A stretch of 64,000 nt of DNA from Nannocystis sp. SCPEA4 (lineage in GTDB: Bacteria > Myxococcota_A > Polyangia > Nannocystales > Nannocystaceae): contig NZ_JAPNJX010000001.1 in assembly GCF_026626685.1 (NCBI RefSeq), positions 12,752 through 76,751 on the forward strand. The letters are read 5' to 3'. This document shows positions 7,252-59,713 of this stretch, in pieces; position 1 is the stretch's first letter, and each line of letters starts with the position of its first letter. The notes under the pieces are model-generated. The model saw nothing but the letters and a program-made list of their open reading frames with translations, was not told where the DNA came from and ran no database searches. The translations under genes were made by a program, and so were the position numbers.

Positions 7252-8319
7252 ATGCCGTTCGCGCCGCTCCTCGCCGCGCTGCTTGTCACCCAGGTGCCCG
7301 AACCTCCGGCCGAGGGCGCGATCGTCTGGCAGGCCCCGCCCGGCTGCCCCGATCGCGCCGCCCTCGAGCGGGCGATCGCCGGCCGGCTCGGTCGCGTGCC
7401 GACGGCCCAGGAGCTCGCGCTCGTCGGCCAGATCGGGCGCACCTCTGCCGGGCGTTACCACCTCGACCTGCGCCTCACCGTCGCCGGCCACACGCAGACG
7501 CGCGCGCTCACGACCCGCCAGTGCGCCGCCCTCGTCGACGCCGCCGCCCTGCTCAGCGCTCTCGCCCTCGACCCCTCCGCCGCTGCCGTCGATCCGGCCT
7601 TGCCGGTCGAGCTCGAGCCCTCGCCCGAGCCGCCGCTCCCCGACGAGCCCATCGAGCCCGACCCGCCAGCCTCCCAGGTCGCGCCCCCCGTCGAGCCCAC
7701 CCCGTCCGCGCGCCCCGAGCCCGTCGACGCCCCCGAACCTCCTCCCCCGGCCGTCGTCGTCGACCTCGCCGAGCCCACCCCGTCACCGCCCCCGCGCCGC
7801 CGCCCCGGCGGTTTCCTGCGCCTCTCCGGCGGCTTCGAGGTCGGCGCCCTCCCGCGCCCCACCGCTGGCCTCGACCTCGCCACCGGCGTGCTCTGGCGCC
7901 GCGCCCGGCTCGAGTTCCACGGCGTCTACCTCGGCCCGCAGACCGAGGCCCGCGGCGTCAATTCGGTGACCGTCTCCTTGCTCGCCGCCGGCGTCCAGGG
8001 CTGCGCCCGGCTCGGCCGCGCGCGCGTCGAGTTTCCCCTGTGCGGCGGCTTCGAGATGGGCGGCCTGCGCGGCGAGGGCCGCGGCCCCGGGGCCCGCACC
8101 GGCACCGGCTTCTGGACGGCCGCCCGCATCTCGGCCGGCGTCGCCTGGCATTTCCACCGCCTGCTGAGCCTCAATTTCGCCGCCCAGGGCCTCCTCCGCC
8201 TGGCCGCCGCGCGCTTCGACCTCAGCGACCCCGACGCCCCCGTCCGCCTGTTCGAGCCGTCCCCGGTGTCGCTGCGCCTGCTCCTCGGCCTCGAAGTGCG
8301 CCTCGGAGACCCATGGTGA
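7252..8319 (+). CDS. hypothetical secreted protein (Pro-rich linker, Gly-rich C-terminal domain)
   Basis: N-terminal signal-like helix and a PEPxP linker. The stop overlaps the start of the ECF sigma gene (ATGGTGA). Confidence 0.5.
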   Translation: MPFAPLLAALLVTQVPEPPAEGAIVWQAPPGCPDRAALERAIAGRLGRVPTAQELALVGQIGRTSAGRYHLDLRLTVAGHTQTRALTTRQCAALVDAAALLSALALDPSAAAVDPALPVELEPSPEPPLPDEPIEPDPPASQVAPPVEPTPSARPEPVDAPEPPPPAVVVDLAEPTPSPPPRRRPGGFLRLSGGFEVGALPRPTAGLDLATGVLWRRARLEFHGVYLGPQTEARGVNSVTVSLLAAGVQGCARLGRARVEFPLCGGFEMGGLRGEGRGPGARTGTGFWTAARISAGVAWHFHRLLSLNFAAQGLLRLAAARFDLSDPDAPVRLFEPSPVSLRLLLGLEVRLGDPW

Positions 8320-9626
8320 CGGAATCCTCGCGGCCCGGGGACAGCCCTCCTGGACCCGTGCAACTCACCGACCGAGAAGCGCGCTTTCGCGCCATCTACG
8401 ACCGCGAATTCCCCTTCGTGTGGGCCGCCGCCCGGTACTTCGGCGTCCCCGCGGCCGCCCGCGACGACGTCGTCCAAGACGTCTTTCTCACCGCCTTCCG
8501 CCGCTTCGACCAGGTCCACTACCAGGTCTCGGCGCGCGCCTGGCTGTACGGCGTCACGCGACGGGTCGCCTCGCATTACCACCGCGGCGCCGCCCGCCAC
8601 TCGCGCCGGATCGCCGCTTTCGGCGAGCTCACCGGCAGCCCCGGCGAGGCCCCGCACGAGCGCCACGACTCCGCCCGCGTGCTCGAGCGCCTGCTCGCCC
8701 GCCTGCCTCGCGGCGCCCGCGACGTGTGGGAGCTGACCGAGCTGCTCGGCATGAGCGGCCCCGAGATCGCCGCCGAGCTCGACCTGCCGCTCAACACCGT
8801 CTACTCGCGCCTCCGCCTCGCCCGCGCCCAGCTCCACGAGCTCGCCGCCAGCCCCGAGCTGCTGGCCGCCGCGCGCCGGCGCGACGATCCGCCGCCCGCG
8901 GCCGCCGAGCGCACCTGGGCCGTGATGTTCCCGCTGCTCGGGCCCGCCAAATTCGCCACCGTCGCCGCCGCCTGGGCCACCGCCCGCACCGGCGTCATGA
9001 CCACCCTCCTCCTCGCCGGCGCCACCGCCGTGGTCGCCGCGGCCCCGCCCCGCCAGGCCCGCGACCGCGCCGCCGAGACCGCCCTGTCCCGAGAGACATC
9101 TGATTCGGCTCGCCCTGCGACAGCTGCGCCCCCGCTCGCGTCGGGCCTGTCCCCGGAGACATCCGAATCCGTCGGCGCTCCGCCGGCGCCCGCCGTGCCC
9201 GACCTGTCCCGCGAGACATCCGGGCCCGCTGGCAACCTGTCGCAAGGGCCAGCTCGCAGCGCCGGCCACCACTTCGCGGTCGAGGTCGACCGCGCCCGCG
9301 CCAGCGACGCCCTCGCCGCCGAGGTCGCCCTCCTCGATCGCGCTCGCGCCCGCCTCGACGCCCGCGATCCGGCGGCCGCCGCCCAGCTGCTGGCCACGCA
9401 CGCGCGCGAGTTCCCGCGCGGCGCCCTCGTCGACGCCCGCGAGGCCGCGGCGGTCGAGGTCCTGTGCCTGCAGGGTCGCCCCGCCGACGCGGCCGCCGCG
9501 GCCCAGCGCCTGGCCGCGCGGCTGCCCGACTCGGTGCTCGCCCGCCGCTTCGAGCGCTTCGTCTGCCCCGACGCCCCGCCGCCGACGGAAACCGGCGCCG
9601 CCGGGGACGAGTCCGGGCGGAGGTAG
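8313..9626 (+). CDS. ECF sigma factor fused to a C-terminal transmembrane anti-sigma-like extension
   Basis: Sigma-70 region 2 (DVVQDVFLTAFRRFDQ...WLYGVTRRV) and region 4 (ELLGMSGPEIAAELDLPLNTVYSRLRLAR). These are followed in the same frame, with no stop, by a TM helix (TTLLLAGATAVVAAA) and a C-terminal domain with triple LS(R/P)ETS repeats. Confidence 0.75.
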   Translation: MVTESSRPGDSPPGPVQLTDREARFRAIYDREFPFVWAAARYFGVPAAARDDVVQDVFLTAFRRFDQVHYQVSARAWLYGVTRRVASHYHRGAARHSRRIAAFGELTGSPGEAPHERHDSARVLERLLARLPRGARDVWELTELLGMSGPEIAAELDLPLNTVYSRLRLARAQLHELAASPELLAAARRRDDPPPAAAERTWAVMFPLLGPAKFATVAAAWATARTGVMTTLLLAGATAVVAAAPPRQARDRAAETALSRETSDSARPATAAPPLASGLSPETSESVGAPPAPAVPDLSRETSGPAGNLSQGPARSAGHHFAVEVDRARASDALAAEVALLDRARARLDARDPAAAAQLLATHAREFPRGALVDAREAAAVEVLCLQGRPADAAAAAQRLAARLPDSVLARRFERFVCPDAPPPTETGAAGDESGRR

Positions 9627-10287: not shown

Positions 10288-10382
10288 TGCCGTTCGGACA
10301 TGTCCCCTTCGACATGTCCCTCGTGACATTCCCTCTCAGACATGTCCTCATCGACATGCCCCTCAGGACATGTCCCGCTCCC
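10288..10382. repeat. tandem array of six or more degenerate ~13 bp units with core GACATGTCC (member of window-wide palindromic repeat family)
   Basis: ttcGGACATGTCCccttcGACATGTCCctcgtGACATTCCctctcaGACATGTCCtcatcGACATGCCCctcagGACATGTCCcgc. Confidence 0.85.
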
Positions 10383-10385
10383 ACC

Positions 10386-11735
10386 TCAGACCGCGTCGCT
10401 CACGCTGGCGAAGTGGAACTCCTTCGCCACCAGCGGCGGCACCACCGCCAGCATCCCCTCGCCGGCGGTCCGCTCGGGCTTGCCGAGAGCCACCAGGTTC
10501 TTGAGCAGCGCCGCCGGGCTCTCGTTGTAGCGCATGTTCTTGACCGGCCGCGCGATCTTCCCCTGCTCGATGAGGAACGTGCCGTCGCGCGTCAGCCCCG
10601 TCGCCAGGATCTGCCGCGGGTCGAGCATGCGGTTGTAGAAAAAGCGGGTCACCAGCACCCCGCGTTCGACCCCGCGGACCAGCTCGTTCAGGTCCTTGCC
10701 CTCGCCCGGGTCGGCCGCCGCCAGGAAGATCGAGCGCGGCGCCGGCAGCGGGGGCCTACTCTGCTTGTGCGCCCAGAAGCGGCTGTAGGCCAGCGCCTTC
10801 AGCATCCCGCGGTCGATCCACGTCGTCGCCGGCAGCGGCAGGCCGTCGCCGGCGAACGGGATCGACGGGTAGCGCGGGTCGGCCGGATCGGAGCGCAGCG
10901 ACACCCGCGGGTCGAACAGCGTCTCGCCGATCGCGTTGCCGCCCGGGCGGCTGAAGAAGCTGCGCCCCTCGTCGGCCGCGCGGGCCTGCAGCGCCGACAC
11001 CAGGAACCCGAGCAGGTCGGCCACCGCCTGCGCCTCGAGCACCACCGTGTAGGCCCCCGGCGCCAGCGCGTCCGCGCCCTGGCTCGACATCGTCGCCTTG
11101 TCGGCCGCGCGGCGGGCCAACCCCATCGCGTCGAGGTCGGCCAGGCGGTGCGACGCCGCCCCGGCCCAGCCGCTGCCCTTGCCGTCGGCCGTGCGCATCG
11201 TCGTCGTCAGCGACGCCTCGGTCGCCGCGTGGAGCGCGAACAGACCTGTCCGATTGGCCAGGACCGTCACCCCGTCCTCGTGCTCGACCAGCCCCGAGGC
11301 CACCAGCTTGGCCTCGCGCGCCACTTTGAGCACGCGGGCCACCACCTCCGTGCGCCCCTCTGGCCCGACCTCCGCCGTCTTGGCGTCGCGCGCCGCCACC
11401 TTCGCGTACTGCTGCGGGCCCAGCGGCGGCTCGTGCTCCGGGTCCTGGGGCGCCAGCTTGGCCAGCGCCTCGGCCTCGCGCACCAGCGCCTGCAGCGACG
11501 CCGTGTCGCGGCCGGTGCCGGACACCGTCGCCACCCGGCCCTCGCGCGCCGCCGTCACCGACACCTCGAAGCGCGCCGCCTCGCCCGACGTCGTCGGCGC
11601 CCCCGCGGCGAACCGCAGGTACGCCGTGCGCCTGGCCGACACGCGCACGCTGACGTCGTCGAACGTCGCCGCCGCCAGCGCCGACTTCGTGATCGCCCGC
11701 GCCTCGGCCGGGCTCAGCGGAGACGCCGCGCTCAC
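10386..11735 (-). CDS. pmbA: PmbA/TldE-family metalloprotease component
   Basis: 449 aa TldD/PmbA-family architecture. Translationally coupled downstream of tldD. Confidence 0.85.
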   Translation of the reverse strand: MSAASPLSPAEARAITKSALAAATFDDVSVRVSARRTAYLRFAAGAPTTSGEAARFEVSVTAAREGRVATVSGTGRDTASLQALVREAEALAKLAPQDPEHEPPLGPQQYAKVAARDAKTAEVGPEGRTEVVARVLKVAREAKLVASGLVEHEDGVTVLANRTGLFALHAATEASLTTTMRTADGKGSGWAGAASHRLADLDAMGLARRAADKATMSSQGADALAPGAYTVVLEAQAVADLLGFLVSALQARAADEGRSFFSRPGGNAIGETLFDPRVSLRSDPADPRYPSIPFAGDGLPLPATTWIDRGMLKALAYSRFWAHKQSRPPLPAPRSIFLAAADPGEGKDLNELVRGVERGVLVTRFFYNRMLDPRQILATGLTRDGTFLIEQGKIARPVKNMRYNESPAALLKNLVALGKPERTAGEGMLAVVPPLVAKEFHFASVSDAV

Positions 11736-25515: not shown

Positions 25516-25659
25516 GCCCGCGAGACGACGCGGCGGACGAGCGCTCCGCCCGCCGCGTGTCCCCCACCGGCTTCGTCTGTCCTTTCGGCCACCGGATCGG
25601 TCGACGACCGAGCGACACCGACCTGTCCTCCTGATCCGCGCCGTTCGACGTCGAGCCCG

Positions 25660-25840
25660 CCGGCCCGCTGTTCGCTGTCCTTGCGACCAGCCGCCGCCTC
25701 GACGACGAGCGCGCCGAGCCGGCGTCAGCTGTCCTTGCGACCAGCCACCAGCTCGACGACGAGCGGACCAAACGGCGTCAGCTGTCCTTTCGACCAGCCG
25801 CCTCGACCGACGAGCGCGGCCATCTGTCGCCTTTGCGACC
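25660..25840. repeat. three tandem copies of a ~54 bp direct repeat (ctgtccttgcgaccagccgccgcctcgacgacgagcgcgccgagccggcgtcag)
   Basis: Read directly from the sequence. Lies in a ~1.2 kb stretch with no convincing ORF between rlmE and typA. Confidence 0.8.
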
Positions 25841-28719: not shown

Positions 28720-28990
28720 CACGCCGGTTCGTCGGCGCGGCGCACGGCCGGCTCGGCGCCAGCTCGCCTGCGGCTCCAGCCGCTTTGCGGCGCCGCTTCT
28801 TCGCCCCGGTACGCTGCAGCGCCACGTCCTGTGCCGCGACACCGTAAAGCGGCTCGCCCACTGCTCCAGCCGCCTCGCCCCACCGCATGCCTGGTGCGCT
28901 GCAGCGCCCCGGCCGATGCCGCTGCGGCGCACTGCCGGCTCGCCTGCGGCTCCAGCCGCCTCGCCCCACCGCATGCTCGCACCGTGCGCG
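28720..28990. repeat. degenerate ~65 bp direct repeats (gctcgcctgcggctccagccgcctcgccccaccgcatgc...ggtgcgctgcagcgcc), 3-4 copies
   Basis: Read directly. On the minus strand they produce repeated MRWGEAAGA(V/A)GEP pseudo-ORF translations. Located between typA and the downstream lipoprotein gene. Confidence 0.75.
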
Positions 28991-40742: not shown

Positions 40743-43711
<2,969 letters not shown>

Positions 43712-45198: not shown

Positions 45199-46380
45199 AT
45201 GCAGCCGTACCCGATCACCGCCATGGCCCTGTGCAACGGCATGGGCGACAGCACCGCCGCCGTGCTCGCGGCCCTGCGCGCGGGTCGCTCCGGCCTCGGC
45301 CCGTGCCCTTCCGACTTCGAGCTCGACGCGGTCGTCGGCGCCATCCCGACCCCGCTGCCGCCGCTGCCCGGCTTCCTCGAGCCCGTGCGCGACACGAGGC
45401 AGACGCGGATCGCCGCCGTCGCCCTCGCCGAGCTGCAGGCCCCGCTCGCCCGCGCTTGCGCCCGCTGGGGCGCCGATCGCGTCGGCGTCGTCCTCGGCAC
45501 CAGCACGGGCGGCATCGAGGCCAGCGAGGGCGCCTACGCCCACGCCCAGGCCCACGGCGGCGCCCTGCCGGCCCACTACGACGTCGAGCTCTCGCACGCC
45601 CTCGACGCCGTCCTCCACCTCGCGCGCGTCCTCGGCGGCGGCCTCGCCGGCCCGGCCTACGTCGTCTCGACCGCCTGCTCCTCGAGCGCCAAGGTGTTCG
45701 CCTCGGCCCAGCGCCTGCTCGCCGCCGGCCTGTGCGACGCCGTCCTCGTCGGCGGCGTCGACAGCCTGTGCCGCCTCACCGTGCGCGGCTTTGCTGGCCT
45801 CGAGGTCCTGTCCTCAAAGCCATGTCGTCCGTTCTCGCGCGAGCGCGCCGGCATCAACATCGGCGAGGGCGCCGCGCTGCTCCTGGTCGAACGGACAGGT
45901 GAGGGTCCGGCCCGCCTGCTCGGCGTCGGTGAGAGCAGCGACGCCTACCACATGACCAGCCCGCACCCCGAGGGCCTCGGCGCCCGTCTGGCGATGGAGC
46001 GCGCGCTGAAGCTCGCCGGCCTTTTCGCCGCCGACGTCGACCACGTCAACGCCCACGGCACCGGCACCAAGCAGAACGACAGCATGGAGAGCCAGGCGAT
46101 CCGGTCCGTCTTCGCCGGCGCGCCCGCGCCCGCCGTGGTCGCCACCAAGGGCTACACCGGGCACATGCTCGGGGCCGCCGGCGCCACCGAGGTCGCCTTC
46201 GTCGTCGACGCCATCGCCCACGGTTACCTGCCGGCCAGCGTCGGTGCCGACCCGCTCGACGAGGCGCTCGGCGTCGACGTCGTCACCGCCCGCCGCGAGC
46301 AGCCGACCCGCGCCGCCCTCAGCAACTCGTTCGCGTTCGGCGGCAGCAACTGCAGCGTCCTCGTCGGAGGCCCGGCATGA
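45199..46380 (+). CDS. beta-ketoacyl-ACP synthase (KS, FabB/FabF-like)
   Basis: Active-site STACSSS, plus HGTGT and NSFAFGGSN motifs. A GTG at 45184 would overlap the glyA stop. Confidence 0.88.
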   Translation: MQPYPITAMALCNGMGDSTAAVLAALRAGRSGLGPCPSDFELDAVVGAIPTPLPPLPGFLEPVRDTRQTRIAAVALAELQAPLARACARWGADRVGVVLGTSTGGIEASEGAYAHAQAHGGALPAHYDVELSHALDAVLHLARVLGGGLAGPAYVVSTACSSSAKVFASAQRLLAAGLCDAVLVGGVDSLCRLTVRGFAGLEVLSSKPCRPFSRERAGINIGEGAALLLVERTGEGPARLLGVGESSDAYHMTSPHPEGLGARLAMERALKLAGLFAADVDHVNAHGTGTKQNDSMESQAIRSVFAGAPAPAVVATKGYTGHMLGAAGATEVAFVVDAIAHGYLPASVGADPLDEALGVDVVTARREQPTRAALSNSFAFGGSNCSVLVGGPA

Positions 46381-47168
46381 GCGCGCTCGCCTTCACCGTC
46401 CGCGGCCTCGGCTTCTGGGCCCCCGGCTACCCCGACCTCGCCGCCTGGAAGGCCCGCCTCGACGCCTGTCCCGAAGACCAGAGTGCCACGCCGAAGGCCG
46501 AGCTCTTGCCGCCGATGATGCGCCGGCGCACCAGCCTGCTCACCCGCATGGCCGCCGAGGTCGCGGCCCAGGCCCTGCGCGCCGGCGGCCTCGATGCGAC
46601 CGGCGCCACCCTCGTCTACGGCTCCGTTTACGGCGAGATCCGCACCACCCTCGACCTCCTGGCCGCCCTCCTCGTCGCCGGCGAGCCGCTGTCGCCGACC
46701 AAATTCCACAACAGCGTCCACAACACCGCGGCAGGCTACGTCTCGATCGCCACCGGCAGCCGGGCCGGCAACGCCGCCCTCTCGGCCGGCCGCTCCACCC
46801 TCGCCATGGGCCTGCTCGAGTGCGCCGCGCTCGTCGCCGCCGGCGAGGGCGACGTCGTGCTCGTCCTCGCCGAGGAGCCCCTGCCCGAGCCGCTGGCCGC
46901 CGGCCGCCGCTGGGGCCCGTTCGCCGCCGCCTTCGCCCTGTCGGCGCCTGGCTCTTCGGACATGCCCGTGACGACATGTCGCCTGGAACAGGGCCCCAAC
47001 GACATGTCCCTCGCGCCAGCACGTCCCGCGCCGGCGTGGCTGGCCGACAGCCCGTGCGCCGCCGCGCTCGCGCTGGTCGACGCCCTCGCCGCCGGCGCCC
47101 CGGGCCGCGTCGCCCTCGAGCCGCACCTCGCCGCCGGCTGGCAGTGCGCGCTGGGGGCGGGGGCATGA
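46377..47168 (+). CDS. KS-like chain-length-factor-type protein (no active-site Cys)
   Basis: 263 aa thiolase-like N-terminal half (TKFHNSVHNTAAGYVSIATGS). ATGA overlap with the KS gene. Confidence 0.65.
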   Translation: MSALAFTVRGLGFWAPGYPDLAAWKARLDACPEDQSATPKAELLPPMMRRRTSLLTRMAAEVAAQALRAGGLDATGATLVYGSVYGEIRTTLDLLAALLVAGEPLSPTKFHNSVHNTAAGYVSIATGSRAGNAALSAGRSTLAMGLLECAALVAAGEGDVVLVLAEEPLPEPLAAGRRWGPFAAAFALSAPGSSDMPVTTCRLEQGPNDMSLAPARPAPAWLADSPCAAALALVDALAAGAPGRVALEPHLAAGWQCALGAGA

Positions 47169-47599
47169 CCGCCGCGTTCGCGCCGGTGGCCGAGCTGGTC
47201 CCGCAGCGCCCGCCGATGCTGCTCGTCGACGAGGTCCTCGCCGCCGACGACGACGCCATCACCTGCGCCGCCGTCGTCCGCCCCGACAACCTGTTCGCCG
47301 TCGCCGGCCGCGTGCACGCCTCCGTCGTGCTCGAGTACATGGCCCAGGCGATCGCCGCGTTCGCCGGCCTGCGCGCGCGCGCCGACGGTCAGCCGCCCGC
47401 GCTCGGCATGATCGCCGCCTGCCGCAGCCTCGAGCTGCACGCCGAGCACCTCGCCGTCGGCGACGCGCTGCAGATCGTCGCCACCCGCGTGTTCGCCGGC
47501 GCCATGGCCGAGTACCAGGCCGTCGTCACCCGCCGCGGCGAGCCGTTCGCCGAGGCCGTCCTTCACGTCGTCACCACCGCCCCCGGGAGCCCCGCATGA
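47165..47599 (+). CDS. hotdog-fold 3-hydroxyacyl-ACP dehydratase-like protein
   Basis: 144 aa with FabA/FabZ/ApeP-like length and hydrophobic pattern. ATGA overlaps on both sides. Confidence 0.6.
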   Translation: MTAAFAPVAELVPQRPPMLLVDEVLAADDDAITCAAVVRPDNLFAVAGRVHASVVLEYMAQAIAAFAGLRARADGQPPALGMIAACRSLELHAEHLAVGDALQIVATRVFAGAMAEYQAVVTRRGEPFAEAVLHVVTTAPGSPA

Positions 47600-48318
47600 A
47601 GCCGCGCGCCCTCGTCACCGGCGCCAGTCGAGGGATCGGCGCCGCGATCGCCGAAGCCCTCGCGGCCGCCGGCCACCCGATCGTCCTCAACTACCGCAGC
47701 GACGACGCCGCCGCCGAGGCCGTCGCCGCCAGGATCCGCCAGGCGGGCGGCGAGGTCGTCCTCAGCCGCTTCGACGTCGGCGACGACGCGGCGGCCGACG
47801 CCGCCATGGCCGCGATCCTGGCCGATCCGCGGCCCCTCGGCGTCGTCGTCAACAACGCCGGCATCGCCCGCGACGCCCCGTTCCCCGCGCTCGAGCGGGC
47901 CGACTGGGAAGCTGTCCTTCGGACCAGCCTCGGCGGCTTCTACAACGTCACCCGGCCGGTGATCATGCCGATGGTGCGACGCAAGTGGGGCCGGATCATC
48001 ACCATGAGTTCGGTCTCGGCGCAGATCGGCAACCGGGGGCAGGTCGCCTACGCCGCAGCCAAGGCCGGCGTCATCGGCGCGACGAAATCGCTTGCGCTCG
48101 AGCTCGCCCGCAAGGGCGTCACCGTCAACGCCGTCGCCCCCGGCCTCGTCGACACCGACATGATCAAGGACGTCCCGCTCGAGCACGTCATGCCGCGGAT
48201 CCCCGCCCAGCGGCTCGGCACCGCCCGCGAGGTCGCCGCGCTGGTCGCCTTCCTCGCCACCGACGAAGCCGCGTACGTCACCGGTCAGGTGATCGGTGTC
48301 AACGGCGGCATGGTATGA
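47596..48318 (+). CDS. fabG: 3-oxoacyl-ACP reductase (SDR family)
   Basis: TGASRGIG, NNAG and YAAAKAG catalytic motifs. Confidence 0.9.
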   Translation: MKPRALVTGASRGIGAAIAEALAAAGHPIVLNYRSDDAAAEAVAARIRQAGGEVVLSRFDVGDDAAADAAMAAILADPRPLGVVVNNAGIARDAPFPALERADWEAVLRTSLGGFYNVTRPVIMPMVRRKWGRIITMSSVSAQIGNRGQVAYAAAKAGVIGATKSLALELARKGVTVNAVAPGLVDTDMIKDVPLEHVMPRIPAQRLGTAREVAALVAFLATDEAAYVTGQVIGVNGGMV

Positions 48319-48325
48319 CGCGGTC

Positions 48326-49525
48326 ATGCACGACGTCGTGATCGTCGGCGCCGGCCCAGCCGGTTCGACCGCCGCCAACTTGCTCGCCCAGGCCGGCGTC
48401 CGCGCGCTCGCGCTCGACAAGGACGTCTTCCCGCGGTTTCACATCGGCGAGTCGCTGCTGCCGATCGACCTGCCGATCTTCGCCCGCCTCGGCGTCGCCA
48501 TGGATCGCTCGCGCTGGCAGTACAAGCAGGGCGCCGAGTTCATCGACGAGCGCACCGGCGAGTTCGCTTTCTTCAGCTTCGCCGACGGCCTCGACGGCAC
48601 GCCGCCGCACGCCTGGCAGGTCGACCGCGCCGCCTTCGACACCATGCTCGCCGACCTCGCGGTCTCCCGCGGCGCCGACATCCGCTTCGGCGAGCGCGTC
48701 ACTGACATCGAGTTCGCCGACGATCACGTCCGCGTCGTCACCGACCGCGGCGAGCACCGGGCCCGCTTCCTCCTCGACTGCACCGGTCAGGACGCCATGC
48801 TCGGCCGCGGCGCCCGCACGATCGCCCCGCTGCACGAGCTCGGGCGCGCCGCCGTCTTCTGTCACTTCGACGGCCTCGCGCCCGACGTGCAGGCCGAGCT
48901 CGGCGAGCAGGGCAACATCAAGGTCCTGATCGTCGAGGACGGCTGGCACTGGCTGATCCCGATGCACGGCGGCCGGCTCAGCGTCGGCCTCGTCAAGTGG
49001 CGCGGCAAGCTCGACGACGACGCCTTCGAGGCCGCCCTCGCCGCCTCGCCGCTGTGTCGGCGGCTCACCGCCGGGGCCACGCGCAGCGCCTCGCGGACGA
49101 TCCGCAACTGGAGCTACAAGAACACCCGCCCCTCCGGTCCGCGCTGGGCCTGCGTCGGCGACGCCTGCGCCTTCCTCGACCCGGTGTTCTCGTCGGGCGT
49201 TTCGCTGGCGATGTTGGGCGCCGAGCGGACCGTCGACCTCCTCGTCCCGGCCCTCGCCGCCGGACGCGAGGCCGACCCCGATCTCATGGCTCCCGTCCAC
49301 GCCACCATGCAGATCGCCTACGACAGCTTCGAACAGCTGATCCGCCGCTTTTACCACACGCGCCTCGTCTCCCACCTGTTCTTCGCCCGCACACCCGACC
49401 CGCAGCTGCGCCGTGGCCTCATCAGCATGCTCGCCGGCGACGTCTGGCGCGACGACAACCCGTTTCAGGACATGCTCCGCGGGTCACGCGTCCAGCCGCA
49501 GCGGGTGGCGAAGCCGGACGAGTGA
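48326..49525 (+). CDS. flavin-dependent halogenase (tryptophan-halogenase family FAD monooxygenase)
   Basis: VVIVGAGPAGS dinucleotide fold, the diagnostic GWHWLIP (GWxWxIP) motif, and FLDPVFSSGVSLA. Confidence 0.78.
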   Translation: MHDVVIVGAGPAGSTAANLLAQAGVRALALDKDVFPRFHIGESLLPIDLPIFARLGVAMDRSRWQYKQGAEFIDERTGEFAFFSFADGLDGTPPHAWQVDRAAFDTMLADLAVSRGADIRFGERVTDIEFADDHVRVVTDRGEHRARFLLDCTGQDAMLGRGARTIAPLHELGRAAVFCHFDGLAPDVQAELGEQGNIKVLIVEDGWHWLIPMHGGRLSVGLVKWRGKLDDDAFEAALAASPLCRRLTAGATRSASRTIRNWSYKNTRPSGPRWACVGDACAFLDPVFSSGVSLAMLGAERTVDLLVPALAAGREADPDLMAPVHATMQIAYDSFEQLIRRFYHTRLVSHLFFARTPDPQLRRGLISMLAGDVWRDDNPFQDMLRGSRVQPQRVAKPDE

Positions 49526-51663: not shown

Positions 51664-52096
51664 GGCCCGCGGATCTGCCGGATCGGCGGCCCGCGTGCAA
51701 CCGCCGCGGCAGCCGCACCTCGACGTCATGCGGCCTCGCGGGCGCGAACAGCTCCTCGGCACCCGCGAACGGCTCCCGCCCTCTGCGCTCCTGTTCGCGT
51801 CACGGGTGAACCTCTTCGTCCGCGCAGCGACGCCACTGCTCGCCTCGGCGGCGCCCAACTCACCGCGCCCCCGTCGCGCCGCGCCGCCCGGCCGATGTTC
51901 CGCGCAGCTTTCGCGGCGGCGCGCAAACTCGCTGCGCTCCCGTCACTTCGCGCCGCCCGGCCGATGTTCCGCGCAGCCTTCGCGTCGGCACGCCGGATCT
52001 CCGCGCAAGCGGCCGCTGCCGTGACGCGCGGCCGTTCACGCCGGCCCGGCGTCCGCACCTCCGGGCCGTGCGGCCGCGCGTGCTACCATCCCGGGC

Positions 52097-52978
52097 ATGC
52101 GGCGCCCCTTCTGTCTCTCGAGCGTCTACCTCCTCGCGGTCCTCGCGCTGTCGGCCCCGTTCATCACCGCCTCGCCGCTCGCGCCCCCCGAGTCTGTCCC
52201 CGAGGACAGCTGTGCGATCGAGGCCGTCGACCCCGCGCTGCTCGGCGTGTGGCACCGCTTCGACGCCCTCGCCGAGGGCGACCGCATGCGCTTCTGGTTC
52301 TTCCACGAGGGCGGCTTCGGCCTCTACCGCTACGGCAAGGTCGGCCTGACCAACACCCACAGCTTCGACTACAGCGCCCAGGGCGGCGTCCTCGAGCTGA
52401 CCTTCCGCAAGACCGGCGAGCGCCGGCGCGTCCCCTACCGCCTCGAGGAAGGCGGCGGCCGCACCTGGTTGGTCCTCGACGACGACCCGCGCGAGGCCGG
52501 CGGCGCCCGCTACTTCAAAGCCCCGGCGGCGGCCACCGGCGCTCCCTGCTTCGATGTCCCCGAGGACATGCCCCGAGCGACAGGTTCCGAAGGACCTGTC
52601 CTCTCGGCCAGCGACAGGATCGGCGGGCGGCTGTGGGGCGAGGAGGTCCGCTACGCCACCGGCGGCATGGGCTTCTCGATCTACCAGCTGCAGCCGCAGG
52701 CGATCGACGGCCGCGGCGTCGGCTGGCACCACCGCGGCGACTACGACGAGTGGACCACCGAGACCCTCACCTACCGCCAGCGCGGCGACCGGCTGGCGCT
52801 GTCGTTCCCGCTGCGCCACGACGGCCTCGAGACCGCGATCACCGTCACCGGCACCGGCGACGACCGCACGCTCCACCTGGCCGAGGACCCGCGCGACTTC
52901 TGGCGCGCCCACACCTACCGCGACATGGGCCCGACCTTCGCCGGCGCCGCCGCCCCGGCCGCCTGCCTGCCGCAGTAG
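52097..52978 (+). CDS. hypothetical secreted protein with two related halves
   Basis: Signal peptide. The two halves are joined by a segment encoded by a GGACATG/CCTGTCC repeat unit (FDVPEDMPRATGSEGPVLS). Confidence 0.5.
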   Translation: MRRPFCLSSVYLLAVLALSAPFITASPLAPPESVPEDSCAIEAVDPALLGVWHRFDALAEGDRMRFWFFHEGGFGLYRYGKVGLTNTHSFDYSAQGGVLELTFRKTGERRRVPYRLEEGGGRTWLVLDDDPREAGGARYFKAPAAATGAPCFDVPEDMPRATGSEGPVLSASDRIGGRLWGEEVRYATGGMGFSIYQLQPQAIDGRGVGWHHRGDYDEWTTETLTYRQRGDRLALSFPLRHDGLETAITVTGTGDDRTLHLAEDPRDFWRAHTYRDMGPTFAGAAAPAACLPQ

Positions 52979-53026
52979 CCGCCGGCCGCTTTTTAAACCT
53001 GCTCTTTCGCACCTATCCCGAGTCAC

Positions 53027-53758
53027 ATGTCCTTGGAGCCAGACGACATCGCCGCCAACCTCGCCGCCGTGCGCGCGCGGATCGCCGCCGCCGTGGCTCG
53101 CCGCGGCCCCGGCCTCGAGCCGATCCTGATCGGCGTCGGCAAGAAGCAGCCCGCCGACGCCGTGATCGCGGCCCGCCGCGCCGGCCTCGGCGACTTCGGC
53201 GAGAACTACGCCCAGGAGCTGGTCGCCAAGGCCGAGGTCGTCGCCGCCGCCGTCGTCCCGCCGCGCTGGCACTTCATCGGCCCGCTGCAGACCAACAAGG
53301 TCCGCAAGGTCGTCGGCGTCGGCGCGCTGGTCCACACCGTCGACCGGCCCGCCCTCGTCGACGAGCTCGCCCGCGAGGTCGCCCGTCTGCGGGCCGGTCG
53401 CGGCGCCACCACCCCGCTCGAGATCCTGGTCGAGGTCAACGTCGGCGACGAGGCGCAGAAGGCCGGCGTCAGCGCGGCCGAGCTGCCTGCGCTGCTCGAC
53501 CTCGTCGCCACCCGCCCCGAGCTGCGCTGCGTCGGCCTCATGGCGATCCCGCCCGAGGGCGAGCCGGAGCAGACCCGGCCGTACTTCGCCCGCCTGCGCG
53601 AGCTGGCCCGCCGCGAAGCCGCAGTGGCCCGCCCCGGCGTCGAGCTGGTCCACCTGTCGATGGGCATGAGCTCCGACTTCGAGGTCGCGATCGAGGAAGG
53701 CGCGACCATGATCCGCGTCGGCACCGCGATCTTCGGCCCCCGCCCGCCGCGCGTCTGA
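53027..53758 (+). CDS. yggS: YggS-family PLP homeostasis protein
   Basis: PLP-lysine context GVGKKQP, and HFIGPLQTNK. Confidence 0.88.
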   Translation: MSLEPDDIAANLAAVRARIAAAVARRGPGLEPILIGVGKKQPADAVIAARRAGLGDFGENYAQELVAKAEVVAAAVVPPRWHFIGPLQTNKVRKVVGVGALVHTVDRPALVDELAREVARLRAGRGATTPLEILVEVNVGDEAQKAGVSAAELPALLDLVATRPELRCVGLMAIPPEGEPEQTRPYFARLRELARREAAVARPGVELVHLSMGMSSDFEVAIEEGATMIRVGTAIFGPRPPRV

Positions 53759-54085: not shown

Positions 54086-55423
54086 GTGTCTTCGCGCGGC
54101 GCGGCGTGCTATCGCAGGCCCGTGCCCAAGGCACCTCTGCTCGCTCCGCCCGGGCCGCCGACGCTCACCTTCCGCTGGGACGGCGCCGCCGTCGCCGCCT
54201 GTCCCGGCGACACCGTCGCCTCGGCGCTGATCGCCGCCGGCGAGCTCGCCACCAGCCGCAGCGCCAAGTACCGCCGCCTGCGCGGCCCGGCCTGCCTCCA
54301 CGGCGGCTGCGGCACCTGCCTGGTGCGCGTCGACGGTCGGCCCAACCAACGCGCCTGCCTCACGCCTGTCCGCGAGGACATGGTCGTCGAGCCGCAGAAC
54401 ACCTACGGCGGCCTCGACCCGACCGCCCTCGTCGACCAGATCTTCCGCCGCGGCATCGACCACCACCACCTCGTCGTCTACCCCCGGCTCGCCAACCAGA
54501 TGATGCAGGGCGTCGCGCGCGAGCTGGCCGGCTTCGGCGAGCTGCCCGACGCCCCGCCCGACGACGCCGCCGGTCTCTTCGACCATGTCCCCGAGGTCCT
54601 GGTCATCGGGGCAGGTCGCTCCGGGCGCGCGCTCGCGGCCGCCCTCGCCGCCGCCGGGCGCCCGCCGCTGGTCGTCGAGCGCCGGCCCGCCGCCGCCCTG
54701 CCCGCCGCCGGCCGCCCGGCCCACCTGCTCGCCGGCGTCGGCGTGTTCGCCTGCTACCCGCAGGAGCGGCTGTGGGCGGCCGCCTCCGAGCACCCGCCCG
54801 TGCTCCACCGGTTGCGCCCGCGCCACGTCGTGCTGGCCGTCGGCGCCCACGAGCCGACCATCCCGCTGGCCAACAACGACCTCCCCGGGGTCGTCTCGGC
54901 ACGTGGCCTCGCGGACATGCTCGAACAGACAGGTCGCCGCCTGGCCGCGCGCGTCGTCGTCATCGGCGAGGGCCCGCGCGCCGAGCTGCTCGCCGCCGGC
55001 CTCGGCGCCGAGCGGGTCGCCCCGGCGCGCGTGCACAAGCTGCTCGGCGCCCGCCGGGTCAAGGGCGTGCAGCTCGACGACGGCAAGATCCTCCGCTGCG
55101 ACCTCGTCGCCCTCGCCCCCGACCCGGCCCCCGCGTTCGAGCTGGCCGCCCAGGCCGGCGCGCCGATCCGCTTCACCGGGGCCGGCTTCGCCCCCGAGTG
55201 CGACGCCGACGGCCGGATCGCCGCCGGCCCGGCCGCCCACCCGCTCGAGGCCGCCGACGCCCAGACCGCCCCGCCGCCGCCGTGGACCCTGTGGGCCGTC
55301 GGCGAGCTGGCCGGCGCGACCACCCCCGCGGAGATCCAGGCCAGCGTCGACCGCTGCGCCGCCGCCCTCCTGCGCGCGCTCGCCGAGTCACCTGCCCCGA
55401 AGGACAGCCATGCCCGCGCCTGA
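54086..55423 (+). CDS. [2Fe-2S]- and FAD/NAD(P)-binding oxidoreductase subunit (HcnB / opine-oxidase A / sarcosine-oxidase-alpha-like)
   Basis: N-terminal ferredoxin-like Cys cluster (CLHGGCGTCLVRVDGRPNQRAC) followed by two Rossmann motifs (VLVIGAGRSG, VVVIGEGPRA). Confidence 0.75.
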   Translation: MSSRGAACYRRPVPKAPLLAPPGPPTLTFRWDGAAVAACPGDTVASALIAAGELATSRSAKYRRLRGPACLHGGCGTCLVRVDGRPNQRACLTPVREDMVVEPQNTYGGLDPTALVDQIFRRGIDHHHLVVYPRLANQMMQGVARELAGFGELPDAPPDDAAGLFDHVPEVLVIGAGRSGRALAAALAAAGRPPLVVERRPAAALPAAGRPAHLLAGVGVFACYPQERLWAAASEHPPVLHRLRPRHVVLAVGAHEPTIPLANNDLPGVVSARGLADMLEQTGRRLAARVVVIGEGPRAELLAAGLGAERVAPARVHKLLGARRVKGVQLDDGKILRCDLVALAPDPAPAFELAAQAGAPIRFTGAGFAPECDADGRIAAGPAAHPLEAADAQTAPPPPWTLWAVGELAGATTPAEIQASVDRCAAALLRALAESPAPKDSHARA

Positions 55424-55897: not shown

Positions 55898-57111
<1,214 letters not shown>

Positions 57112-57498
57112 GTCGCCGGGATCGGCCCCCCGAATAAACCGGTGCGCTTCGCCATGAACCATCGACCACGCGCGAATTCGGCGGCGCCGCCTCACGCGCC
57201 AAGCGCCATGTGGGCCCGGGTCGCCCACGCCTCGGTAGCCGTCGCAAGTGGCCTGCGGGCGCCCAGCCGCGCCTTCCGGCCCGGTGGCGGCGAAAAACCC
57301 CGGCGTTTCCCGACTCCCCCGCGGCCCCGCCGAGGCGCCTTTACCGGGTTGCGACCGCCTGGTGCGCGTGCCCCTTCGCGGCCGGACTGCGATATCATCT
57401 CCGTCCGACCTCCGAGGTGCCATGGGCCCGTGCTTGCCAGCCGAATTTGTTCTGCCCTATCATCGGCGAAACATGCAGCCAGCGAAGGATAGCGCCCC

Positions 57499-58314: not shown

Positions 58315-58405
58315 CCGCTTTCGCTGGCCGCCAGGACATGTCCTCGCGGCCAGGCTAGTTGGTTGTCGCTACACGAGCTCGTCGCTCGCGGCCTGTCGCT
58401 GCCGC

Positions 58406-59712
58406 TCAGGCGACCAGGCGCCCGACCGCGAGCGACCCCTCGGCCCGCTCGACCTCGATCCACGCCGACCGCCCCAGCAGCGCGTCGTCGCCGGCCGCCA
58501 GCACCGTCAAGCCGTTGTCCGCGCGCCCGACCAGCAGCCCCGTCCGGCGGTGACGCGAGCGGTGGATCACCGCCGACACTCGCCGGCCGACCTGCGCCGC
58601 CGCGAACGCCTGCTGCTTCGCCGCCGACAACGCCCGCAGCGCCGTCGCGCGGCGCTGCTTGAGCGCCGCATCGACCTGCCCTGAAAGACAGGCCGCGTCC
58701 GTCCCCGCCCGCGGCGAGTACGAGAACACGTGCAGGTACGCCAGCGGCAGCGACTCGAGCAGCGCATGGGTGTTCGCGAAAGCCGCCTCCGACTCGCCGG
58801 GGAAGCCGACGATCACGTCGGTGCCGACGCCGATCCCCGGCACGACCTCGGCGAGGCGAGGCACCAGCGCGCGCAGGTCGGCGGCCGTGTGGGCGCGACG
58901 CATCCGTCGCAGCGTGTCGTCGTCGCCGCTCTGCACCGGCAGGTGGAGATACCGGCACAGCCGCGGCTCGCCGGCCAGCAGCGTCACCAGGTCGTCGTCG
59001 ACCTCGTGCGGATCGACCGAGCCGAGGCGCAGCCGCGCCGCCCCGACATGCGGCAGCAATTCGGCGACCAGCCCCGACAGCGACGCGCGCGGCCGCAGGT
59101 CGCGGCCGTAGATCCCGAGGTGCACTCCGGTCAGCACCACCTCGGGCACCCCGGCCGCCACCAGTTCCTGCAGCTGCGCCCGCACCTCGTCGGGCGCCAC
59201 GCTCGCGCTGCGCCCGCGGACCCGCGGCACCACACAGAAGCTGCAGCGGTAGTCGCAGCCGTCCTGGATCTTCAGGTACGCCCGGCTGCGCCGCGGGTCG
59301 GCGGCGGGGCGCAGCCGGGCCACGCGGACCCGCCGGGCCAGGTCGACCGGCGCCACGTGGATCTCCGGGACATGTCCATCTGCACATGTCCCCGAGAGCA
59401 GCTCCATCAGCCGCTCCTTCTCGCGGTTACCGACCACCAGCGTCACCCCCGGCAGCGCCGCGGCCTCCTCGGGAGCGGCCGTCGCCCAGCAGCCGGTGAC
59501 CACCACCTTCGCACCGGCGCGCGCGGCCCGGCGCACGTGCTGGCGCGCGTCGGCGTCGGCCTCGTGGGTGATCGTGCAGGTGTTGACGACCACCAGCTCC
59601 GGCGCGGCCTCGGCGTCGACGACCGTGTGGCCGGCCGCGCGAGCCATCTGTTCGAGGGCGTCGGACTCGAACTGGTTGAGGCGGCAGCCGTGCGTGGCGA
59701 ACGCGACGCGCA

Positions 59713-59713
<1 letters not shown>
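58406..59713 (-). CDS. mtaB: tRNA methylthiotransferase MtaB-like radical SAM enzyme
   Basis: MTTase N-domain (FATHGCRLNQFES, VVNTCTI), radical SAM CDYRCSFC, and a TRAM-like C-terminus. The start overlaps the stop of the upstream kinase gene. Confidence 0.85.

Follow-up and report, generated by a model that had tools for sequence, protein, structure and literature searches.

The 64,000-nt stretch of the Nannocystis sp. SCPEA4 genome analysed here (hereafter the window; G+C content 70-77%) is populated by a short palindromic repeat, a 14-bp unit with the perfect 10-bp palindromic core GGACATGTCC. A sequence-only reading of this DNA had proposed that such units lie in frame inside a series of conserved genes, in the manner of the Rickettsia palindromic elements (RPEs). 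Our analysis leads to a narrower view, to which we give a probability of about 0.6. In this view, about three genes of the window (mtaB, the gene of a 293-aa protein, and the gene of a fused extracytoplasmic function (ECF) sigma/anti-sigma protein) hold repeat DNA resembling repetitive extragenic palindromic (REP) sequences, translated in tolerant loops or linkers, and the other sites are ordinary sequence.

The exact decamer is found eight times in the window against 0.03 expected copies, the dominant spacing of core-related words is 14 bp, and Tandem Repeats Finder (TRF) returned arrays of period 14, which in tandem form can be written (GGACATGTCCNNNN)n. Units were scored with a position weight matrix (PWM) built from the units, and a score of at least 13 was taken as strong. 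Strong units number 42 in the 64 kb, and 28 of them are intergenic, although intergenic DNA accounts for 19% of the window; their density is 2.31 per kb in intergenic DNA vs. 0.27 per kb in coding sequence (CDS), i.e., about ninefold. Among the strongly phased pairs of units, 20 of 22 are intergenic as well. Arrays of one to six units are present in tandem, convergent and divergent spacers, adjacent units are able to pair as hairpins, and the intergenic folds exceed those of shuffled controls. The orientation of a unit is undefined, because its core is a perfect 10-bp palindrome. The intergenic and genic features on which the argument rests are the following.

10294-10377, no strand: intergenic array of five to six units, the typical habitat of the family (TRF period 14, 5.7 copies; fold of 10290-10380, -44 kcal/mol, z = -6.3)
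58332-58345, no strand: lone unit capping a longer hairpin in the spacer of the convergent genes lactamase_B and mtaB (score 18; fold -22.5 kcal/mol, z = -4.2)
58406-59713, minus strand: mtaB CDS, intact (Pfam UPF0004 at residues 3-96, Radical_SAM at residues 149-319)
59366-59393, minus strand: two 14-bp units in the mtaB interdomain linker (PWM scores 17 and 11), encoding G-T-C-A-D-G-H-V-P and forming a hairpin with a 9-bp stem
52097-52978, plus strand: 293-aa hypothetical protein with an N-terminal signal-like segment and no Pfam family; halves conserved, central linker hypervariable
52548-52603, plus strand: in-frame array of three to four units (…DVPEDMPRATGSEGPVL…), located in the 293-aa protein's linker, with units at 52562, 52576 and 52590
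9079-9222, plus strand: three degenerate unit-pair modules in the Pro/Ala-rich linker of the fused ECF sigma/anti-sigma protein (CDS 8313-9626), where CTG TCC CGn GAG ACA TC reads LSRETS / LSPETS / LSRETS

Close relatives carry intergenic arrays at orthologous positions. Because these positions are occupied in close relatives, the arrays are stable and not in active movement. The unit at 58332-58345 was found in loci L081 and L085 and is missing in the repeat-poor locus L084. An Rfam scan of the whole window matched no family, and full-text literature searches on Nannocystis and myxobacterial repeats returned no description of a palindromic family. A CRISPR reading was ruled out, the 14-bp units being separated by variable gaps of only 4 nt with no unique spacers.

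Two further observations concern the units themselves. Between two plus-strand genes at 2696-2758, a variant unit, CCTGTCCGCAAGGA, forms an array (period 14, 2.5 copies, 95% match), so the family has sub-variants without the CATG centre. The ATG start of a YggS-like (Ala_racemase_N) gene, at 53027, is the ATG within a unit core, ACATGTCC (53021-53034), read M-S, and this unit-supplied start codon is conserved in L086 and L087.

Syntenic DNA was collected through homologue searches with MtaB and with the chain-length factor (CLF) and through contig look-ups, and covers N. radixulma, N. pusilla, N. punicea and more distant Nannocystaceae. A scan of a genome collection gave mostly distant Ignavibacteria, and its usable loci were L001 to L005 and L027. 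The sample comprises the 64-kb window and about ten loci of ~20 kb each. Unit density is 0.4-0.66 per kb in the window and in L086, L087, L081, L082, L001 and L085, and 0.05-0.13 per kb, which is the background, in L084, L088, L002, L089, L003 and L004. The family is dense only in the Nannocystis clade with an MtaB at least 82% identical to that of the window. Another unit variant in the repeat-poor genomes was ruled out by the lack of any enriched non-codon word and of any lag-14 signal. On these densities, SCPEA4 is part of a Nannocystis clade where REP-like 14-bp units multiplied. An ECF sigma factor encoded in the window matches one of Nannocystis sp. SCPEA4 at 100% identity.

The clearest genic site is in mtaB. 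Repeat units at 59340-59410 had been reported inside a continuous mtaB frame, and this is borne out: two units stand there 14 bp apart, with cores at 59368-59377 (GGACATGTCC) and 59384-59392, and phase analysis of the G+C content at third codon positions (GC3) shows that the frame is unbroken across both. By the Pfam limits, the units fall between the UPF0004 (MTTase) and Radical_SAM domains. Six of ten codons at the site end in A or T, compared with a background of 4.6% (P = 2e-6), and the RNA hairpin is predicted at -27.5 kcal/mol (z = -4.1). The MtaB of the window is 96% identical to that of N. pusilla, and a look-up of its exact sequence gave no record. All MtaB orthologues of at least 80% identity have the long linker, with four more codons and with rare codons (ACA TGT … GGA CAT GTC CCG), and all those of at most 79% identity have a GC-rich linker that is four codons shorter. 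The gain is 12 nt, a multiple of three, and the long form coincides exactly with the repeat-rich clade. The two-unit hairpin and the four codons were gained once, in the ancestor of that clade. Set beside L084 and L002, the mtaB junctions show no clear target-site duplication.

The mtaB hairpin is kept in five genomes, with one compensatory pair (A-U to G-C), and its two cores are conserved around a spacer that varies freely (AD, GK or SE). In some orthologues, e.g., P0008 with RTC…GQAP, the hairpin has apparently decayed. In the AlphaFold model of MtaB (predicted local distance difference test score, pLDDT, of 92), residues 111-117 (CADGHVP) form a coil between helix 97-110 and strand 118-120, and model confidence is lower around it (block means of 69-70 for residues 111-130). 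The segment is modelled as a surface coil or loop, in line with the location that the sequence-only reading had foreseen for its insertions. The MtaB peptide spanning the repeat segment is LMELLSGTCADGHVPEIHVAPVDLAR.

The two other genic sites are linkers of variable length. The proposal that units join the two halves of the secreted protein at 52097-52978 was right, as a unit-built linker lies between conserved halves; outside this linker, orthologues of the 293-aa open reading frame (ORF) are 74-97% identical. In the linker array, 8 of 19 codons end in A or T (P = 9e-7), and the hairpin has a z of -2.95. The linker is longer by 126 nt in L082 and by 153 nt in L001, in both cases via tandem modules, and TRF found in the L001 orthologue an in-frame period of 36 nt, with 3.4 copies carrying the core. 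The peptide of the 293-aa protein that spans the repeat segment is …APAAATGAPCFDVPEDMPR. In the sigma/anti-sigma protein, the LSRETS copies of the window are degenerate unit-pair junctions, GC3 dips to 0.72-0.80 along the linker, and 12 of 48 codons end in A or T (P = 1e-6). Its orthologues range from 388 to 497 aa and contain from 0 to at least six [DG]MSRETA modules; the anti-sigma gene of L090 holds a 36-nt module in 2.6 tandem copies (96% match) with a perfect GACATGTCC core. Of the peptides encoded by units, only that of a unit pair, DMSRET, is seen repeatedly, in these two linkers. Both linkers contain unit-derived in-frame modules that expand and contract between species.

How a non-coding unit can be read through follows from its length and composition. 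All six frames of the core are free of stop codons. Read in its three frames, the core gives DMS, TC and GHV, and these readings account for every peptide that the sequence-only reading had listed. As 14 mod 3 is 2, consecutive units are read in successive frames, and because of this shift a three-unit array (42 nt) keeps the frame, encoding DM[SP]..T[GC]..G[HP]V. With no stop in the core and this remainder of 2, a gene can retain a short array wherever its protein is tolerant of it. The excess of units in CDS over codon-aware nulls is modest but significant: 11 were observed at a score of at least 13, vs. 3.3 under codon shuffling and 6.3 under synonymous resampling. There are two strongly phased pairs in CDS vs. 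none in 200 runs, for both nulls alike; weak matches, with scores of at most 12, are expected by chance. A/T-ending codons cluster at the three genuine sites (P about 1e-6), and A/T third positions are kept in the cores vs. a background retention of 6-50%. Hairpins as a general property of in-gene units were ruled out, since significant in-gene folds are limited to the mtaB and 293-aa ORF sites and are not seen at the CLF and kinase sites. All in-gene sites are common to the whole clade, with no presence/absence difference among close relatives. The affected genes are intact and not pseudogenes, with high GC3 on both sides of the units, conserved orthologues, and confident AlphaFold models (pLDDT of 88 for CLF, in addition to MtaB).

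The remaining sites that had been listed as insertions, together with a second site in the kinase gene, are as follows.

46956-47011, plus strand: three strong units and a weaker fourth, in phase, in the Ketoacyl-synt_2 (CLF-like) gene; no insertion (scores 15, 14 and 19)
43038-43051, minus strand: one strong unit, read PRDMSEN, within the long insert that the TPR Ser/Thr kinase has in its activation loop (score 16)
41616-41657, minus strand: 42 nt of unit-like sequence with rare codons, at a TPR turn of that kinase (score 16 at 41619; A/T-ending codons 5 of 14, P = 3e-4)
54911-54938, plus strand: site in the Fer2_4 / SoxA-like ("HcnB-like") gene, ordinary conserved sequence (scores 11 and 9, within the chance range)
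55985-56015, plus strand: loop after GxGxxG in the DAO (SoxB-like) gene; no PWM match, weak unit resemblance
45802-45829, plus strand: site in the ketosynthase (KS) gene, a conserved …LS..PCRPF… motif and a chance match (scores 10 and 12; protein conserved as far as L089)

Units in frame were confirmed for mtaB (59366-59393), the kinase (43038), CLF (46956-47011), the 293-aa ORF (52548-52603) and, in degenerate form, the anti-sigma linker (9079-9222), and the matches in Fer2_4 (scores 9-11), DAO (below the scan threshold) and KS were dropped. The further claim that the listed sites are insertions failed for most examples. In CLF, the kinase activation loop, Fer2_4, KS and DAO, the homologous segment is just as long in orthologues of repeat-poor genomes or in distant homologues, and no length difference appears at five of the eight sites that were examined. 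A length difference between orthologous sites in a multiple of three was recovered at mtaB and, by way of module copy number, in the two linkers; it was not recovered at CLF, either kinase site, Fer2_4, KS or DAO. Among the "essential enzymes" said to have acquired loops, only MtaB is affected.

The CLF segment is equal in length across the whole family, with a consensus of M..RTCRL, and there is no indel at its first two units relative to the repeat-poor L088 and L089. In the AlphaFold model the central unit is held by a core beta-strand (T200-C201 within strand 199-207, block pLDDT of 92), not by the surface loop that had been expected, and the array has no significant hairpin (z = -1.45). 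The activation-loop insert of the kinase is present in all orthologues, where the unit aligns codon for codon with non-unit sequence in L088 and L089; only a two-codon difference is seen nearby, and no significant fold. At 41616-41657, the unit-like stretch is an equal-length swap for an unrelated sequence of the repeat-poor relatives, also without a significant fold. The Fer2_4 site has no indel in any orthologue and aligns without gaps to SoxA 2gag_A. The DAO loop exceeds that of the solved homologues 1y56_B and 3ada_B by 7-9 residues and is found in all Nannocystis; it predates the repeat expansion, because it is common to the repeat-poor L084. Matches in the ketoreductase (KR) gene at 48154 and in DAO at 57091 were dismissed as conserved protein motifs. 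These remaining claimed sites are conserved protein sequence, which either resembles a unit by chance or has drifted towards one.

Among known repeats, REP sequences and bacterial interspersed mosaic elements (BIMEs) are short hairpin-forming palindromes, mostly extragenic and often clustered, that stand in tandem, convergent and divergent spacers and expand in a lineage-specific manner. The Nannocystis units are like them in being palindromic, hairpin-forming (arrays with z = -4 to -6), present in many copies, mainly extragenic and expanded in one clade, but differ in the head-to-tail arrangement of the arrays, with a strict 14-bp period, and in the few copies in CDS. The 36-nt linker modules, with a copy number that varies between species, are like coding minisatellites (in-frame variable number tandem repeats), except that they are built from an intergenic palindromic unit, so that the DMSRET… peptide is the by-product of a non-coding family. 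The family as a whole is REP/BIME-like, and the linkers resemble coding minisatellites made of the same unit.

Under the reading favoured here, the units would have reached genes by templated processes acting locally, for instance copying at a hairpin, template switching or conversion of a short patch, and replication slippage would account for the growth of the linker modules. Template-switching at quasipalindromes is known to create or perfect inverted repeats, and it also yields paired changes (PMC7202029). Transposition of a discrete element would be a less likely entry route; templated copying is favoured over it because no ends or target duplications were found. Once translated, the copies would make loops and linkers longer as passengers that the protein tolerates, and would not be adaptive modules.

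Several observations weigh against this explanation. The sample of loci is small, the genic sites show neither element ends nor target-site duplications that would demonstrate a mechanism of entry, and the exact boundaries of the mtaB gain cannot be fixed. A degenerate array of the same length is already present in the 293-aa ORF of the repeat-poor L084, so this array predates the expansion. The compensatory change in the mtaB hairpin was made via two amino-acid changes. In CLF, the codons ACA TGT (46974-46979; T200, C201) are kept in the repeat-poor L089 (~10595-10606), which is 64% identical and in which only 4 of 66 A/T-ending codons are kept as background; this retention may reflect a constraint on DNA or RNA. 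Finally, the synonymous-resampling nulls show codon choice favouring the motif beyond the three sites. The wider codon-choice bias, the CLF retention and the mtaB compensation hint that a force acts directly on the motif as DNA or RNA, and none of the three is predicted by a pure passenger view.

Such a force would be expected if the palindrome were a selected nucleic-acid signal, either the DNA or RNA binding site of a clade-specific protein or an mRNA hairpin, that dictates amino acids where it lies in genes. Amino-acid changes would then have compensated one another to preserve the mtaB hairpin, and conservation of the CLF core ACA-TGT would extend across genera. This dual coding agrees with the conserved mtaB cores around a free spacer (AD, GK, SE), with the retention of A/T third positions in the cores, with the single A-U to G-C compensation through two non-synonymous substitutions, with a codon choice that favours the motif at fixed protein sequence, and with the kinase stretch at 41616-41657, where 42 nt turned over to unit-like sequence at unchanged length. 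However, the counts are very small and the sites were picked after the fact, significant folds are confined to two sites with none at CLF and the kinase, the mtaB hairpin seems to have decayed in some orthologues, no Rfam family matches anywhere in the window, and template-switch correction of a quasipalindrome gives paired "compensatory" changes without selection (PMC7202029). We consider dual coding improbable. A different drive on the motif could come from biased uptake and recombination, or from biased conversion, through which the 10-mer would accrue at poorly conserved residues with no change in length. Uptake signal sequences (USS) and DNA uptake sequences (DUS) are ~10-bp motifs that occupy poorly conserved coding positions and bias the local peptide content (PMC2817400). 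The Nannocystis motif is likewise ~10 bp long, occurs roughly once per kb (~0.7 per kb) with some copies in coding regions, lacks indels at several in-gene sites, and favours variable positions there. Unlike uptake sequences, of which 34-65% are in ORFs and which are not tandem (PMC2817400), the units are about ninefold denser between genes, form tandem 14-bp arrays around a palindromic core, and use rare instead of preferred codons within genes, and competence is not established in Nannocystis. A drive of this kind is very unlikely.

The proposal closest to the sequence-only reading is that a mobile palindromic element transposes into genes, where copies that keep the frame persist and give many conserved enzymes loops specific to the lineage. 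RPEs fall into ten families of discrete ~150-bp elements, which have a conserved peptide in one frame and dozens of genic insertions per genome (PMC10969869); they are palindromic DNA translated in frame within conserved genes at fold-compatible positions (PMC10969869). In support of such a colonisation, units occur in real ORFs above codon-aware chance, the core is free of stops in six frames, the rare-codon composition suggests a non-coding origin, and mtaB resembles an RPE insertion in that palindromic DNA, there with a clade-specific gain of 12 nt, is translated in a surface coil that is four residues longer. On the other hand, the Nannocystis unit is only 14 bp, is read in all three frames, has no element boundaries, and is overwhelmingly intergenic; its genuine genic sites, all ancient, number about three in the 64 kb. 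At no genic site was there a discrete 100-150 bp element of the kind of an RPE or a miniature inverted-repeat transposable element, with defined ends, terminal inverted repeats or conserved flanks, nor any target duplication. Together with the sites that show no length difference, the CLF unit in a core beta-strand, and the old, clade-wide occupation of the in-gene sites without presence/absence differences among close relatives, this makes a Rickettsia-style colonisation unlikely. The opposite extreme, that every in-gene match is chance or ordinary sequence and that no repeat DNA entered any gene, describes the KS, KR (48154), DAO 3' end (57091) and Fer2_4 matches well, these being conserved motifs that are present in repeat-poor genomes too, and weak matches in general are expected by chance. 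It does not explain the two phased pairs in CDS that neither null produced, the rare-codon clusters at P about 1e-6, the exact match of the mtaB long form with the repeat-rich clade, or the perfect GACATGTCC core within 36-nt tandem coding modules, and we hold it to have very little likelihood.

The repeat DNA translated in mtaB and the two linkers illustrates how simply a non-coding repeat can become part of proteins: a 14-bp unit, free of stops in all frames, is read in one frame after another through all three, and in-frame 36-nt modules derived from it then build species-specific linkers. Such DNA varies the linker length of a signalling protein (the ECF sigma/anti-sigma) and slightly alters a loop of a tRNA-modifying enzyme. 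Compared with Rickettsia-style colonisation, the retention of repeats in Nannocystis genes is a far rarer and older phenomenon; most of the listed "insertions" are ordinary conserved sequence. The repeat itself seems to be an undescribed clade-specific palindromic family, hosted by a high-GC myxobacterium with a genome of 12-13 Mb.

Other features of the region were noted. The CLF gene belongs to an aryl-polyene-type gene set at 45199-49525, directly downstream of the serine hydroxymethyltransferase (SHMT) gene and syntenic across Nannocystis, which consists of KS, Ketoacyl-synt_2 (chain-length factor), an ApeP-like dehydratase, KR and an FAD halogenase-like gene. TRF also reported longer tandem repeats unrelated to the 14-bp family, at 25645-25822 (54 nt, 2.9 copies), 28808-28976 (86 nt, 2.0 copies) and 51846-51993 (69 nt, 2.2 copies). 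In L082 (GCA_026626665), the spacer downstream of mtaB, at 11309-11577, has a different and longer composite repeat of ~84 nt in three copies, containing GGGACAGGTGATGCGCC… and CCCTGTTCCGGGACAGGC and adjoining an extra 261-aa gene that is missing from the window. Directly upstream of the plus-strand lactamase_B gene (start 57499), ~130 nt at 57370-57498 are near-invariant in all Nannocystis loci, including the repeat-poor L084, while the remainder of this upstream spacer diverges. The segment has no Rfam match, and its conservation suggests a putative structured leader, small RNA or regulatory region.

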